NCBI GenBank assembly: GCA_963664015.2
Contig: CAXXLF010000001.1
Location: forward strand, 1 to 64,000
Direction of reading: 5' to 3'
Length of the DNA: 64,000 nucleotides
Source of the DNA: Candidatus Binatia bacterium
GTDB lineage: Bacteria; Desulfobacterota; Binatia; UBA9968; CAXXLF01
Both the position numbers and the translations under genes were made by a program. The notes beneath the pieces are model-generated. The model searched no databases. It saw nothing but the letters and a program-made list of their open reading frames with translations, and was not told where the DNA came from. Positions within the stretch are counted from its first letter, which is position 1. Every line of letters begins with the position of its first letter. Below are positions 34,034 through 62,210 of this stretch, piece after piece.

Positions 34034-35178
34034 ATGGCTACCAGAAAGAAAAGAACCACACCTAAAAGCAATAAATCAAGATACCAGGACTTCAGTCATA
34101 CTGGGGCTGATACACTTGCCGACCAATATCTACGAACATTCTGGTGGCCCTTGTACCGCTCTGATGACCTGAAGTCCCGAACGGCCCGACCGGTTCGCAT
34201 CTTGCACGAGAATTTCACCCTTTATCGGGGAAAGAGCGGAAAGCCCAGCGTTCTGGCCCCCCGCTGCGCCCATCGAGGGGAACAGTTGTCAATAGGTTGG
34301 GTCGAGGGAAATTCCCTTCGTTGCTTCTATCATGGTTGGAAATACGATGCAGCGGGTCAGTGTGTGGAGCAACCAGCGGAGGATCCGGCCTTTAAAAAAA
34401 GGTCAAGATTCGAGCGTATCCAGCCCAAGACTACCTGGGTTTAGTTTTCGCCTATCTGGGAGGAGGGAAGCCATCGGCGTTACCGCGCTATCCCTTCATG
34501 GAAACAGTCGACGAACCTGGTTGCATCCTGGCGGTGGGAACGAATACAAGACCATACAATTACAGAAATCGGATCGAGAACAGCTTCGATCCCGTCCAGA
34601 TCGTATTGGTACACCGAAACTCGGAGTATCAGGGCTTAACGGGTTACCCGGAAGTGCCGGCCGAAGAAACTGACTATGGATTGTTCCTGAACTCGAAACC
34701 ACCGGGAGGAGCCGTTCGGATTATCCAATTCCAGATACCGACCATTCTATACATCAAGCAAGGTCCCCGGCTGCCATTTGAAACCGCGTGGAGGGTGCCC
34801 ACCGACGACCACAGCAAAACACTTTTTTCTGTCACGCTGATCCGCGTTAAGGATGAGAAGGCGAAGCGCCAGTTCTCAGAAATCGACGATAAGATTATTG
34901 CCAATAACCCCGCCCCTCAACTGGGCGACGCCGTACTGGTAGGGGAAATGCACATTGACGAAATCAACGACCCCAAAGTACGGGTTAACGTTCAGGACTA
35001 CGTAGCCCAAATGGGACAGGGGACCATAGCAGACCCGGAACACGAGAGACTGGGCCGATCGGATACCAAGATCATCCTGTTACGAAAAATTTACGCGCGC
35101 GAGATTCAGGCCCTGGCACAGAAAAAACCCCTTAAAAAATGGTTCCCGCTCACCCCGTCAGCAACCATCGGGCTATAA
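34034..35178 (+). pseudogene. Rieske oxygenase (phthalate 4,5-dioxygenase-like), frameshifted
   Basis: RCAHRG..CFYHGWKY; -1 shift in the A7 run at 34394-34400 (restores KVKIRAYPAQDYLGLVFAYLG); iron motif ENSFDPVQ has lost its His. Confidence 0.8.
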
Positions 35179-35597: not shown

Positions 35598-36978
35598 CTA
35601 ACCGAAATAACCCAGATAGCGCCACCACAAAAACTGCAGTGGTAAGATAACCAGCCAGGCCAGGGCAGTCATAGCCAGCAGGAGACGCATGAGTTGGCCG
35701 GCACTCAAACCGCCTAGCTGGCATACAACGACCAGAGGCGGTAGCTGATAGGGGAATAGGGTCGTCGTCCAGATCGGCACTTGCGCCATCAGAACCGTGA
35801 TCAATGGCCAACCCGTGGCTACAGAGATCTTCAACGCTAGGCTGGTCATGATGGCCGGCTGGCCTGGAATGGTGACCAGGGCTGCAATGACCATTCCAAT
35901 GACACTGAGGGCGGCAAAGTTACCCGCGTCGTTTCCTGGGGTGAGCGGTACAATGGAAAAGAGCAATCGACCTACCAGCTCTCCAAAACCACTTTTCGCC
36001 GCCACGGCACCGAGCCCAATCACACCAACGATTGAGAACCATGGACCCAGATTAATCTTACTGAGTAATGAGCCTACGGGGACCATGCCCGTACGGGGGA
36101 GAAGGCAGGTTATCGCTGCGCCCATGGCGATCCATGCGGGGGATATACCATGGGCAAAATCGGCCATCCACAACGCCAAGCAACAGAACAGGATAACCGT
36201 CAGCCTTCTCTCCTCAGGGCTAGAGGGTTCCTGCACCTGGGGAGGGGGGGGGCGCTACGGAGCTCATCTGGATAGAGCACTCTGATTATGGCCGGGAGAA
36301 AAAGGATGCTCGTCGTAGCGATAACCGGGAACTGCATCAGGAAATACTGGCCGTACGTCACTCGAATGCCGTGAACGCTTTCGGCGGCACCGAGAAGGGC
36401 CAGGTTCGGGACTGCGGCCGTAAGGATACCGAAGCTCGGGTAAAGGGTTCCCGCACTGACAGCGAGGGTAATGGCGACCCGCCCGTTACTGCCCTGAGTC
36501 CATCCAAGCCGGTTGGCCAGGCCAAGAAATATGGGTAGCAGGATCATAATCCGCCCCATATTGGACGGCAGGACAAATGCCATCAATGCAGCAACGATGA
36601 CCGACCTTGCAAGAATACTGAAGTAAGAACCTCCGAAATAGCCAATTAGAGTGCCTGCGATTCGCGAGCCGAGGCCGGTCGTTTGCACCGCATGACCAAT
36701 TACCAGGCCGCCAAACACCATCCATGACGCAGTTGAATGAAATCCTGAAAAACCACCTGGGGCGGGACGTCGGTCAGGGTGACGGCAAGAAAGAAGAAAA
36801 TGATCGAGGTGAAGTATTCGGGTATGACCGCCGTCGCCCATAATCCGATTACCGCAACGATTACACCCGCGGTTCGCATCACACCCGGGGGCAAACCATC
36901 CGGCGCCGGGACAAAGTACAGCAACGCGCCCACCAAGCACACGAATGCTGCAATAGTGTGCGCTAAACTCCGAGTCAA
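35598..36978 (-). pseudogene. SLC13/DASS family anion transporter in three frames (frameshifts may be sequence errors)
   Basis: GLWAT.VIPE, WMVFGG, PSNMGR, AVPNL, FPYQLPP; frameshifts at A5 (36748-36752) and G9 (36244-36252). Confidence 0.75.
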
Positions 36979-48435: not shown

Positions 48436-50672
48436 ATGGCCATGGGAGAATCCCAACCCTTTGAGGATGTTGTTTGCGAGCTCGAGAAACGAGTGGAAGG
48501 GGAGGTTCGCTTCGACCGTTACTCGCGCCTTCTCTACGCCGCCGACGCCTCCAGATATGAGATTGAACCCATTGGAGTCGTGGTGCCGCGCCATAGAGAG
48601 GACGTTCAAGCCGTCATCGAGGTATCCAATCGGTTCGGTCTCCCTGTTTTACCTCGAGGCGGTGGAACGTTTCTCGCCGGGCAGACCGTTGGCCGGGCCA
48701 TCGTCCTGGATTTTTCCAAACATATGAACCGGGTCCTTAAGATCGACGGGGACGGCATGTGGTGCCGAGTTCAGCCCGGGCTGGTTCAGGACGATCTCAA
48801 CGCCCAGATTAAATCATTGGGAGTCCTCTTTGGACCGGACACTTCTACCTCCAACCGTGCCACCATCGGCGGCATGATCGGCAACAATTCAGCGGGTATC
48901 CATTCCATCGCTTACGGTAAGACCGTGGACCACGTCCTGTAACTCACCATATTGCTGGCCGACGGCACAGAACTGGTTTTGAAGGACCTGTCACCGGAAG
49001 AACTGTCCCGCGAGTGCCAGAGCCATGGCGCCGAAGGTAATATATACAAGGAGTTGACCGCCATCGTGAGACAATCCTTGCACGCTATCCCAAGATCCTG
49101 CGTCGTGTTTCCGGCTACAACCTGGACGAGTTGGTCAAGCTGCAGCCTTTCAATCTATCGCGGTTGTTGGTCGGCTCCGAGGGGACCCTGGCATGCGTTG
49201 TGGAAGCGAAGCTGAAGCTCGTGCACGCGCCCCCCGGGGCGTCGAGACCATGGCCGCAATCGCCAACGAGATCTCCGACCTGGTCCTCAAGTGTGAGGGG
49301 TCCCTATCAGGCGAGCATGGGGATGGCCTGGCACGCAGCCATTTCAATGAAAAGTTCTTTGGAACTGAACTCTATCAGTGTTTCCGCAGTGTCAAATCAG
49401 TCTTTGATCCCAAGGGTCTGATGAATCCGGGAAAAATTGTAGAAGCCCCCCCCCCATGACCGAGTCGTTCCGAATGGGACCGTCCTACAAAGCCTGGGAA
49501 CCGGAAACCGTCTTGGACTTCAGCGCCCAAGGAGGATTTGCCGTAGCTGTCGAAATGTGCAACGGAACCGGGGCGTGCCGCAAAAAACTTTCAGGGAGCA
49601 TGTGCCCCTCCTACATGGCGACCCTGGACGAGGAACACTCGACCCGGGGCCGAGCCCATGCCCTTCGCGCAGTCCTCTCGGGGAAAGTCCCCAATGAGGA
49701 TTATACAGGCAAGGGGCTCTACCGAATCCTCGACCTCTGCCTGGAGTGCAAGGCGTGCAAAGTCGAATGTCCGTCCAACGTGGACATGGCCAAACTCAAA
49801 TACGAGTTCCTGTCGTCTTATCACAAGGTCCATAGCATGCCCTTGGGCCATCGGCTCTTCGCCAGAATCGACCGGCTCCGTCCCTTGCCGATGTTTGCCA
49901 CAAAGTCTTTCGAGAACTGGTTCCATGGGCGTTCGGCTACCGGGAGCGGATCCAGAGGAGAGGTCATCCTCTTCCACGACACATTCAACACCTACAATAC
50001 GCCTGCGATAGCCATGGACGCTACGCGCCTTCTCGAAAGTGCCGGGTATCGAGTGATCCTTGCCCAGCGACAGTGCTGTGGGCGGCCATTGATCTCCAAA
50101 GGGTTGCTGGTCGAGGCACGTTCGGCGGCCGCTCAGAATGTAGAGTGGCTTTCGGCCCATGCGAAAAAGGTAACCCCCATCTTGGGATTGGAGCCTTCCT
50201 GCCTGTTCACCCTACGGGATGAATATCCCGATCTCCGGCGCAGCGAAGAAGCTCGCCTGATGGCAGGGGATTGCTTCCTGGTGAAAGACTTTCTCTTGCA
50301 GGAACGGGAAAGGGGCCGATTGGAGCTGGAGTTTACCCCTATTCACGGTCCCGTGCTGCTCCATGGCCACTGTCACCAGAAGGCCTTAACCGGGACCGAC
50401 TCCACCGTTGCTTCACTGCGCTGGGCTGGTTATGCTGTGCGGACTTGGACGCTGGTTGCTGCGGCATGGCCGGGGCTTTTGGATTTGAGAGGGAACACTT
50501 CGACCTGTCCCTGGCCATCGGTAACCAACGGTTGGCACCGGCTATCCGGGATGCCGGGCCCGCAGTGGAGGTCGTGGCCAACGATATTTCGTGCCGGCAA
50601 CAGATTCAACACCGCACGGGCCGGCAGGCGAGTCATCCGGTGGAGCTTCTATGGAGGAGTCTTTCCCCATGA
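48436..50672 (+). pseudogene. FAD-linked oxidase / Fe-S fusion (GlcD-GlcF / YdiJ-like), multiply disrupted
   Basis: PRGGGT, ATIGGMIGNN, GSEGTL, SGEHGDG, CNGTGAC, CLECKAC, CCG; TAA at 48940-48942; several frameshifts and missing segments. Confidence 0.88.
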
Positions 50673-59540: not shown

Positions 59541-59571
59541 CGTCGGCGGAGTTTCGCTGGACGGTGGAGGT

Positions 59572-61543
59572 CGAACCATGGGAGCGATCCTAAGGCGATA
59601 CGAAAATAGAATCGAAAGGGAGCTGAGGGACGGGAAGTCCAGGGGGATCCGAGTAGCACCAACCACCGGTTCATCCAACGGCAACGGTTCTCATTCAGGT
59701 CCCTCTCTGGAAGATTCCCGCGCCAGCATTCCCCCACTGGGACTTCGGGAGTACTGGTATCCTGCCCTGGCGGCAAAAAAAGTACGCCGCAAGCCTCTCT
59801 ACTGGAATATGCTCGGCGACGATCTGACCTTTTTCCGGGACAAGCAGGGAGAGGTCGTTGCCATTTCCGACATCTGCCCCCACCGCGGCGCCAGCTTGAG
59901 CGAGGGAGACTGCTTCTACAAGGGTTTTCTTTCATGCCCATACCACGGCGCCACCTTCGACGGGAACGGCGAGTGCGTCGCCTTCATCCCCGAGGGACCC
60001 GATTCCAAGATGGTCGGTAACTTGAGGATACGATCCTACCCGACAAAGACGCTACGAGAGTGGGTCTTTGTCTGGATGGGCGAGGGAGAGCCCGCTCCTA
60101 TCGAAGAAGACGTCCCACCGGAATTCTTTGAAGAAGGCAACGTGGTCATTAGCTCCTATACCTACTGGCCCATCAACTGGCTCATTGCTATTGAGAACCA
60201 TAGCGATTCTCATAACGCCCTCTACCTACACCGAAACTCTATCAAGCAGTTTCTGGGATTGTCCGCCGGGCGGACGCGTACTCCCCTCGGGGCACAGGGG
60301 AAAATCGTCAATGGACGGGGCCTGATCACCACCCACGCAAATGCCAAGTATTACGCCAAAAACGGTAAAGTTCCCTACCAGATGTACTATCCCGGAGTAG
60401 ACGGAGTTTGGCCGCAAAACCGTTGGCGTCTGCTCTGGCAATGGTTTTTCAAGCTCCTTTCGGGACCAAAAAAAGAAGGGAAGTACTTTGACGGGTACGA
60501 AGAATGGGGCCAGGGTCACCATCTCCCTGGGGTGGTCCGGACCGGCGGTGGCAGCACGAGGTATTCTATCGCTGCTGGGCCGAATTTATCACGCATCCTT
60601 TATTTCTATTTTCCACGAGCCGGCAACGAGGTAACTCGCACCCTACAGAGAATGTTCTACTACTTCATCTACGATCCATTGGAGTACAACTTTAGCAGTC
60701 AAGACGGTTGGGGGACCTCCTCGTGCCGCTACTGGACACCGGAACATCTCTCTTCGACGGACTCGCAGATCCTTGTTTTGCGCAAACTAATTTCAGAAGT
60801 CTCCAGGGACGCGCAACTGAGAAAGGCCGGGCCGGCCCACAGGGACCGGCGGTTGGAAAAACACAAGGAGGTCCAAGGTTAAGCGGACGCCGAACCATGG
60901 GAGCGATCCTAAGGCGATACGAAAATAGAATCGAAAGGGAGCTGAGGGACGGGAAGTCCAGGGGGATCCGAGTAGCACCAACCACCGGTTCATCCAACGG
61001 CAACGGTTCTCATTCAGGTCCCTCTCTGGAAGATTCCCGCGCCAGCATTCCCCCACTGGGACTTCGGGAGTACTGGTATCCTGCCCTGGCGGCAAAAAAA
61101 GTACGCCGCAAGCCTCTCTACTGGAATATGCTCGGCGACGATCTGACCTTTTTCCGGGACAAGCAGGGAGAGGTCGTTGCCATTTCCGACATCTGCCCCC
61201 ACCGCGGCGCCAGCTTGAGCGAGGGAGACTGCTTCTACAAGGGTTTTCTTTCATGCCCATACCACGGCGCCACCTTCGACGGGAACGGCGAGTGCGTCGC
61301 CTTCATCCCCGAGGGACCCGATTCCAAGATGGTCGGTAACTTGAGGATACGATCCTACCCGACAAAGACGCTACGAGAGTGGGTCTTTGTCTGGATGGGC
61401 GAGGGAGAGCCCGCTCCTATCGAAGAAGACGTCCCACCGGAATTCTTTGAAGAAGGCAACGTGGTCATTAGCTCCTATACCTACTGGCCCATCAACTGGC
61501 TCATTGCTATTGAGAACCATAGCGATTCTCATAACGCCCTCTA
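59572..61543 (+). repeat. 653-bp perfect direct repeat (59572-60224 and 60891-61543)
   Basis: Line-by-line comparison found no mismatch at offset 1319; sequences diverge immediately after ...CATAACGCCCTCTA. Confidence 0.93.
59578..60882 (+). CDS. Rieske non-heme iron oxygenase, copy 1 (CarAa/OxoO-like)
   Basis: GLREYWYP, CPHRG..CPYHG Rieske motif, ENHSDSH..H, NFSSQD; GGAGG RBS at 59566-59570. Confidence 0.9.
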   Translation: MGAILRRYENRIERELRDGKSRGIRVAPTTGSSNGNGSHSGPSLEDSRASIPPLGLREYWYPALAAKKVRRKPLYWNMLGDDLTFFRDKQGEVVAISDICPHRGASLSEGDCFYKGFLSCPYHGATFDGNGECVAFIPEGPDSKMVGNLRIRSYPTKTLREWVFVWMGEGEPAPIEEDVPPEFFEEGNVVISSYTYWPINWLIAIENHSDSHNALYLHRNSIKQFLGLSAGRTRTPLGAQGKIVNGRGLITTHANAKYYAKNGKVPYQMYYPGVDGVWPQNRWRLLWQWFFKLLSGPKKEGKYFDGYEEWGQGHHLPGVVRTGGGSTRYSIAAGPNLSRILYFYFPRAGNEVTRTLQRMFYYFIYDPLEYNFSSQDGWGTSSCRYWTPEHLSSTDSQILVLRKLISEVSRDAQLRKAGPAHRDRRLEKHKEVQG

Positions 61544-62210
61544 TCTGCATCGAAATTCTATCAATCAGCTGATCGGCTTGTATCCAGGAAGGACACGTAC
61601 GCCCTTGAGCTCCCATGGAAAGATCGTCAACGGGCGAGGACTGGTGACGACCCACGGAGGTTTCAACTATTACGCCAGGGACGGGAAGGTCCCGTTTCAA
61701 ATGGTTTACCCGGCAGTGAATGGAAAATGGCCCCTCAACCGGGGGCGCTTGCTTTTGCTGCGCATTTGTAAACTCTTCATGAAGAAACAGCCCAGGCCGT
61801 TCGCAAAATACGAGGAATGGGGTCAGGGCCATCACCTGCCGTCGGTGGTCCGCACAGGAGGCGGAAGCACTCGATATGCGGTCCCAGTAGATGCAAACAC
61901 TTCGCGCATCGTCTATTTTTATTTCCCACGCCCCCAAACCCGAGTGACCCGGGCCTGGAAAAGGGTTTCCTTCACACTGATCCGCAACTCATTGGAGTAC
62001 AATTTTAGCGGCCAGGACAGGACCGCGGCAGCCTCGTGCCGTTTTTGGACAACCGAGCACCTTGCTCCAACAGACTCGCAGATCACTATATTTCGCAAGA
62101 TGATTACCGAACTCTCCAGGGACGCGCAGAGGGAAAGGACCCAAATCGGCCAAGGGGAAGAGATTCAAAGGAACCGGAGTCAGGAGCCGCCCATCGCACC
62201 GAAAAGTTAA
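60897..62210 (+). CDS. Rieske non-heme iron oxygenase, copy 2
   Basis: Same N-terminal half as copy 1 with a divergent catalytic half (NFSGQD); start assigned by homology to copy 1. Confidence 0.88.
   Translation: MGAILRRYENRIERELRDGKSRGIRVAPTTGSSNGNGSHSGPSLEDSRASIPPLGLREYWYPALAAKKVRRKPLYWNMLGDDLTFFRDKQGEVVAISDICPHRGASLSEGDCFYKGFLSCPYHGATFDGNGECVAFIPEGPDSKMVGNLRIRSYPTKTLREWVFVWMGEGEPAPIEEDVPPEFFEEGNVVISSYTYWPINWLIAIENHSDSHNALYLHRNSINQLIGLYPGRTRTPLSSHGKIVNGRGLVTTHGGFNYYARDGKVPFQMVYPAVNGKWPLNRGRLLLLRICKLFMKKQPRPFAKYEEWGQGHHLPSVVRTGGGSTRYAVPVDANTSRIVYFYFPRPQTRVTRAWKRVSFTLIRNSLEYNFSGQDRTAAASCRFWTTEHLAPTDSQITIFRKMITELSRDAQRERTQIGQGEEIQRNRSQEPPIAPKS

Follow-up and report, generated by a model that had tools for sequence, protein, structure and literature searches.

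Two tandem Rieske oxygenase genes of a Candidatus Binatia bacterium share an identical 5′ half and carry divergent 3′ halves, an arrangement best explained by a recent gene conversion between old tandem paralogs that was limited to the 5′ part of the genes, a reading to which we give a probability of roughly 0.7 from sequence comparison. The pair lies in the window, by which we mean the whole 64,000-nt stretch analysed (positions 1 to 64,000 of contig CAXXLF010000001.1, assembly GCA_963664015.2). The 5′ tract is homogenised, the 3′ halves are old and the pattern recurs in marine relatives from SAR202, observations that uphold the sequence-only reading in so far as it proposed a recent conversion between old paralogs, and that point to a recurring evolutionary habit, not a genetic switch. 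The coordinates of the features are collected in Table 1.

Table 1. Features of the Rieske pair and its immediate surroundings, in positions of the window
Feature	Positions	Strand	Basis
M24-family peptidase-like gene, upstream neighbour, syntenic in L001 and L002	58377..59540	+	
Shine-Dalgarno (SD) sequence of copy 1, GGAGGT, outside the identical tract	59566-59571	+	6 nt 5′ of ATG
Identical tract, first copy	59572..60224	+	Sequence comparison; domain limits from fold match and invariant columns
Rieske oxygenase alpha subunit, copy 1, 434 aa	59578..60882	+	ORF; PF00355, PF11723
Divergent 3′ half, copy 1 (His218, substrate-binding fold, Asp376)	60225..60882	+	Sequence comparison
14-nt gap between copies, with a weak SD for copy 2	60883..60896	+	
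Identical tract, second copy	60891..61543	+	Sequence comparison
Rieske oxygenase alpha subunit, copy 2, 437 aa	60897..62210	+	ORF; PF00355, PF11723; AlphaFold
Divergent 3′ half, copy 2; 11/103 conserved columns altered, against 4/103 in copy 1	61544..62210	+	
MFS transporter, downstream neighbour, syntenic in L001	62417..63814	+	

The two oxygenase genes and their neighbours

Judged by domain content and predicted fold, both genes are intact and encode carbazole-dioxygenase-like Rieske oxygenases. PF00355 scores above cut-off in both copies, as does PF11723, albeit over only 56 of its 241 positions. In an alignment of 150 sequences, the Rieske ligands C100, H102, C120 and H123 are invariant and form the CxH...CxxH pattern. 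H212 and H218 are likewise invariant and D210 and D374 (copy 2 numbering) nearly so, which gives the putative two-His, one-Asp and bridging-Asp ligand set of the catalytic domain, with a spacing unlike that of carbazole dioxygenase; all of the putative metal ligands are retained in both ORFs. The AlphaFold model of copy 2, built from 150 sequences, reached a pLDDT of 92, and the copy 1 model, from 30 sequences and with a pLDDT of 51, was left out of the analysis. Among 48,161 chains, the best fold for the copy 2 model is carbazole dioxygenase (3gkq, Z 32.3, rmsd 2.7 over 337 residues), followed by 2-oxoquinoline monooxygenase (Z 28.1) and the phthalate and isophthalate dioxygenases (Z 26.2 and 25.3), and these top structural matches are all of the alpha3 type. 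Copy 2 is 24% identical to carbazole dioxygenase, and the pair is flanked by an M24-family gene and an MFS transporter.

The solved homotrimeric enzymes (carbazole 1,9a-dioxygenase, 2-oxoquinoline 8-monooxygenase and the phthalate and isophthalate dioxygenases) share with the pair the fold, the Rieske ligands and the two His and one Asp, and they too come without a beta subunit gene alongside, none adjoining either copy here. The pair differs from them in its low identity (22-24%) and in having an N-terminal extension and one more helix at that end. A search of the window for a partner gene, be it a ferredoxin or a reductase, identified none. Tandem duplication of carAa in carbazole degraders belongs to the background and is not evidence here, a literature search having found no paper on it. 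The motifs that align with those we take to form the pocket floor of carbazole dioxygenase are, on a weak alignment, nearly the same in both copies, so the specificity gap between them may be small. The substrates of copy 1 and copy 2 are presumably related, not identical; most likely they are aromatic or heteroaromatic compounds that the two enzymes hydroxylate.

A genome scan, of which the best 80 of 149 confirmed stretches were carried forward, gave 75 loci, none identical to the window. The top matches, L001 and L002, are also from Candidatus Binatia; they are syntenic, about 70% identical and hold one copy each at the site. No unconverted ancestral tandem of both catalytic lineages was found. 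Several further genes of the window have broken or unusual reading frames. In a distant third Rieske oxygenase gene (34035-35178, +), a frameshift close to a run of A at about 34395 breaks the reading frame in two, which could be a sequencing error or mark a pseudogene. An FAD-linked oxidase with Fe-S domains (48436-50666, +) lacks about 178 codons and carries frameshifts relative to its intact ortholog in L002, and is likely a pseudogene, and a sodium:sulfate symporter-like gene (35601-36940, -) extends across two overlapping frames. Among the scanned loci, a 3-kb contig titled Klebsiella pneumoniae (L017) holds a family member with a length like that of the members in the Betaproteobacteria loci and is possibly mis-binned.

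The identical tract and the divergent 3′ halves

The sequence-only reading had described a 653-bp identity between the two 5′ halves, and the assembled sequence reproduces it, at 59572-60224 and 60891-61543 with a spacing of 1319. The match is exact and comprises a 6-nt leader and 647 nt of coding sequence, taking in the N-terminal extension, the Rieske domain and the first part of the catalytic domain, where Asp210 and His212 lie. Its 3′ edge is as abrupt as had been described and lies within the mononuclear-iron motif, the first mismatch being the third base of the Tyr216 codon in ENHSDSHNALYLH; the proteins are identical through residue 222. Silent positions follow the same course, with 76/76 four-fold sites identical over aa 51-215 and, among the codons of the tract that encode the same residue, 205/205 identical, a run reached in 0/5000 permutations. 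This is the contiguous silent-site identity, exceeding that of the rest of the gene, by which gene conversion is recognised. The tract of the Rieske pair is also the sole long near-exact repeat reported in the window.

Two details of the first description need amending. The structural match of the copy 2 model places the Rieske fold at about residues 57-170 and the catalytic fold at about 186-381, so that the breakpoint is off any domain boundary: some 30 residues of the catalytic domain belong to the tract, which stops in the motif that is best conserved in that domain. The leader, which had been counted with the Rieske domain and the catalytic start, may instead be ancestral and not copied, because the single-copy relative L002 has the same 6 nt.

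Beyond the tract, the copies share 121/196 residues (62%) and 382/588 nt (65%) over aa 217-415, within the 55-65% amino-acid identity first estimated by eye. At silent sites they are near saturation, with 37/57 four-fold sites different over the same interval and 18/54 identical over aa 223-412. A conserved 3′ block at aa 231-250 retains 16/20 residues, and the differences are concentrated in loops and helices. In copy 2, conserved aromatics have been lost from an amphipathic helix (61740-61772, +; W283G, W287L, W289R, F291C); the loss may change how the helix meets a membrane or the substrate. The N half is better conserved than the C half across all family pairs. In the family alignment of 150 sequences, the 627 pairs with 55-60% C-half identity have a mean N-half identity of 70% (sd 4.5), and the maximum besides the Rieske pair is 82%; this distribution, together with the silent-site identity, rules out conservation of the N half as the sole cause.

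Trees of the tract and of the rest of the gene disagree, a further mark of gene conversion, and they place the two C halves in separate clades: that of copy 1 clusters with P0003/P0007 (bootstrap 99) and that of copy 2 with P0005/P0025 (bootstrap 98). The shared half, taken over aa 78-215, clusters with P0005/P0025 (bootstrap 88), and the diagnostic residues of this region favour the relatives of copy 2 by 8 to 3. The copy 2 lineage was therefore probably the donor of the shared half and copy 1 the chimeric recipient. This is a lean only, because the donor alternative is not rejected by the AU test (p=0.199) and the diagnostic residues of aa 1-77, a region covered by one copy 2 relative, split 7 to 6 the opposite way; the tree of aa 1-215 does not separate the two possible donor lineages.

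Recurrence in SAR202 relatives

Pairs were drawn from 92 genes (score ≥200, length ≥330 aa) plus the two window genes, and the permutation test on same-residue codons was applied to 85 same-genome pairs and to 400 sampled from the 466 cross-genome pairs that have ≥70% N-half identity. Silent-identity 5′ tracts (0/5000 permutations) were found in 3/85 same-genome pairs, namely in the window and in the SAR202 loci L059 and L069, while 0/400 cross-genome pairs reached ≤1/1000. The paralogs of L059, which lie 9 kb from each other, match over 635 bp at 96.7%, and the tandem paralogs of L069 match over 595 bp at 90.8%. Both tracts open on the start codon or immediately 5′ of it, and both copies of each pair have strong SDs. 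A look for the same breakpoint in related genomes had been proposed as a check; the 3′ ends differ, lying at about nt 647 (window), 600 (L059) and 480 (L069) of the genes. Two further features of these loci were recorded. In L059 (894-2231 and 9935-11215), a quick tree nests the N half within a clade of L042, L025, L028 and L045 and leaves the C halves outside it, which suggests an older half-gene exchange as well. L069 holds a large serine recombinase ORF (990-2477), with the converted pair following about 7.5 kb downstream.

A tandem pair present in five SAR202 genomes gives an older signal. The catalytic-half tree holds paralog A as a clade (100/100), whereas the Rieske-domain tree puts the A and B copies of a genome lineage together (97/97, 96/95), and a paralog A clade is rejected for the Rieske domain (AU p=0.008). 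Site patterns, summed over 10 non-independent quartets, number 168 genome-wise, 122 paralog-wise and 30 crossed in the Rieske domain, against 111, 1272 and 83 in the C half. GC3 is not the cause of the signal, which persists in the amino-acid sequences and when codon positions one and two are considered. The contrast of genome-wise with crossed patterns is not significant in one quartet alone (p=0.07); what carries the SAR202 claim is the trees, together with the contrast of genome-wise with paralog-wise patterns. No conversion signal came from three SAR202 pairs with spaced copies or from one additional pair. In total, the tracts and trees amount to at least five conversion events across two phyla.

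Conversion is not special to the Rieske family, because a tract was also found in 1/42 non-Rieske paralog pairs, the control set having been reduced from 47 pairs by dropping 5 antisense shadows of Rieske genes. The pair concerned encodes cupins and has a 64-codon identical tract. It belongs to the SAR202 cupin arrays, which consist of two or three tandem genes with 84-89% nt identity (L047 2866-5247, L048 2-3836, L049 1523-5242); next to one of them, L048 3836-6628 carries solute-binding protein genes in tandem with 84% nt identity.

Alternatives, mechanism and significance

The most serious alternative, which we nonetheless consider improbable, is a recent tandem duplication after which one 3′ half was replaced by a fragment of either a distant paralog or a gene gained by horizontal transfer. 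The single-copy state of the syntenic loci L001 and L002 fits such a duplication, as does an identical block that opens at the gene start, where a duplication junction might lie. It would, however, require a second junction at a non-homologous tail and intergenic gap, and the GC3 of both 3′ halves (0.63 and 0.64) is typical of the window (0.57-0.67), which gives no signal of a foreign source for either half. The 9-kb separation in L059, the graded tract of L069 and the SAR202 tandem moreover need repeated exchange between long-resident paralogs.

A different outcome of the same conversion, with still less in its favour, is decay, copy 2 being a duplicate that is poorly translated and in the course of being lost. 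Copy 2 does lack the SD of copy 1, as had been noticed from the letters: the anti-SD duplex energy is -3.2 kcal/mol, compared with -10.5 for copy 1, and the nearest AAGGAGGT lies 24 nt upstream of a gene that begins 14 nt past the copy 1 stop. The altered conserved columns of its C half (Table 1), among them the four aromatic losses, and the broken genes elsewhere in the window would also suit a declining copy. A weak SD does not prove silence, because 2/12 other window genes, taken at their ORF-finder starts, have one equally weak or weaker, and the 14-nt gap would permit translational coupling. Neither an internal promoter nor a terminator is predicted in the gap, and the counts are near shuffle level (promoter-like 5 versus 2.4 in shuffles, terminator-like 5 versus 5.3), so these were discarded as signals between the copies. 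Against decay stand the intact ORF with its full set of putative metal ligands, the hydrophobic moment of the altered helix (0.45 versus 0.47, retained) and the relative P0005, which itself departs at 9/108 columns of a background set biased to one clade.

An assembly or polishing artefact, in which differing 5′ halves were overwritten by one consensus used twice, is very unlikely. The identity is exactly 100%, each protein forms a one-member cluster with no independent assembly behind it, and the frameshift at the A run elsewhere in the window is a possible sequencing error. The contig, however, measures 3,357,617 bp, which implies long reads spanning the 2.6 kb concerned; unconverted 5′ halves would be expected to be about 70-84% identical in protein, too distant to collapse; and the same pattern occurs at 97% and 91% in other genomes, intermediates that a collapse would hardly give. 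Polishing might have lifted 97-99% to 100%, which would leave the reading unchanged.

Least likely of all is a programmed constant-plus-variable cassette, also proposed from the sequence, in which excision across the repeat sets the second module behind the strong RBS and switches specificity. The geometry works, since loss of 1319 bp would indeed place the copy 2 ORF behind the SD of copy 1; the same is true of any direct repeat. The weak SD of copy 2 and the serine recombinase ORF of L069, to which no link is shown, might be cited in its support. Excision would nevertheless be one-way, with copy 1 permanently lost, and L059 and L069 have strong SDs on both copies. No recombinase, integrase or transposase Pfam family occurs among the scanned ORFs of the window, which ends 1.8 kb downstream, and no recombinase family among those of L059. 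Further copies of the 5′ module had been proposed as a check; a third near-identical one is missing among 815 near-length and 49 short matches, the best of which reach 74% and 79%, respectively. In cassette systems such as pilE/pilS, vlsE and the hsdS shufflons, a constant part lies next to variable parts, whereas both Rieske copies are full-length ORFs, and neither a silent array nor a recombinase nor a fixed crossover site turned up here. Lacking a recombinase in the scanned ORFs, a common end point, extra modules and reversibility, the site-specific switch was rejected.

Under recent gene conversion, the starting state would have been two old, intact, homotrimer-type Rieske oxygenase paralogs in tandem. 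A very recent homologous recombination would then have overwritten the first 215 codons of one gene with those of its neighbour, through one gene conversion or through two unequal crossovers giving the same product. Two conserved blocks would have anchored the exchange, one in the start region and one at the iron-binding motif. We infer that ordinary homologous recombination was the route. Electrons would be supplied to both enzymes by a shared ferredoxin or reductase encoded elsewhere.

Why the exchanges favour the 5′ side is a separate question. On balance, exchanges of the Rieske half may have been tolerated, as it does the same job in both enzymes, and those of the 3′ half purged, as they would erase distinct substrate preferences. 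Higher starting similarity alone could produce a 5′ bias and indeed predicts one, because the N half is the more conserved in all pairs. Selection is slightly favoured over similarity alone, because the tracts run through an N-terminal extension that is poorly conserved (homologs are 27-56% identical there) and yet stop before well-conserved 3′ blocks such as aa 231-250. In solved trimers, the Rieske cluster is described as serving the neighbouring subunit and redox partners as docking at the interfaces (PMC12445004, PMC9939785), which supplies a reason for a shared half and is not evidence here. The same sources place specificity determinants in the active site, loops and tunnel (PMC9939785, PMC12445004), loops and tunnels being said to tune selectivity (PMC9939785). 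A stronger proposal, which we regard as doubtful, is that in the Rieske oxygenases of Binatia and SAR202 selection maintains recurrent conversion of the Rieske half, matching paralogs to one redox partner, perhaps in mixed trimers, while the catalytic halves diversify. Mixed trimers of copy 1 and copy 2 are possible by analogy: NdmA and NdmB, described as paralogous alpha subunits of different selectivity served by one reductase, offer a precedent for co-assembly in their alpha3-alpha'3 complex, although as stacked homotrimers and not as mixed trimers (PMC9939785).

Domain-limited gene conversion is a known process; gene conversion is a subject of PMC9205934. The pattern in the Rieske oxygenase family is modest. 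The nearest parallel lies in polyketide synthase modules and GRINS, where, according to PMC8256042, near-identical stretches of >500 bp are likewise confined to certain domains of otherwise divergent paralogs in a cluster; the Rieske pair consists of stand-alone oxygenases, and its tract falls on the electron-transfer half. GRINS are defined there as duplicated regions of >500 bp and >80% identity with mean absolute GC and TA skews both >0.15 (PMC8256042). The pair matches the duplication (653 bp at 100%) and falls below the skew cut-off (0.08 and 0.08 in the window; 0.20 and 0.11 in L059; 0.21 and 0.07 in L069), so it was not classed as GRINS. Expansions of paralogous ring-hydroxylating oxygenases have been described in SAR202, with the same broad family, many shared hosts, and many alpha and few beta subunits (PMC6946804); the main text of that paper does not contain the words tandem or recombination, and its relevant passages do not mention half-gene homogenisation. 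In the open-access literature, outside which most subscription journals lie, no paper on gene conversion or mosaicism in Rieske oxygenases was found.

The Rieske pair is a natural domain swap, one Rieske half joined to two catalytic halves that differ by 40%, with its crossover in the iron motif, and as such is useful to enzyme engineering. The pair is also a warning that, in SAR202 and Binatia, paralogs are grouped wrongly when trees are computed from the Rieske domain, and that such pairs may interrupt short-read assemblies or go unseen in them. If selection for a common redox partner or for mixed trimers proved true, it would bear on the way these bacteria put large oxygenase expansions to work on refractory organic matter; concerted evolution would then yield a natural constant-plus-variable enzyme family and help to explain how genomes run dozens of alpha subunits.
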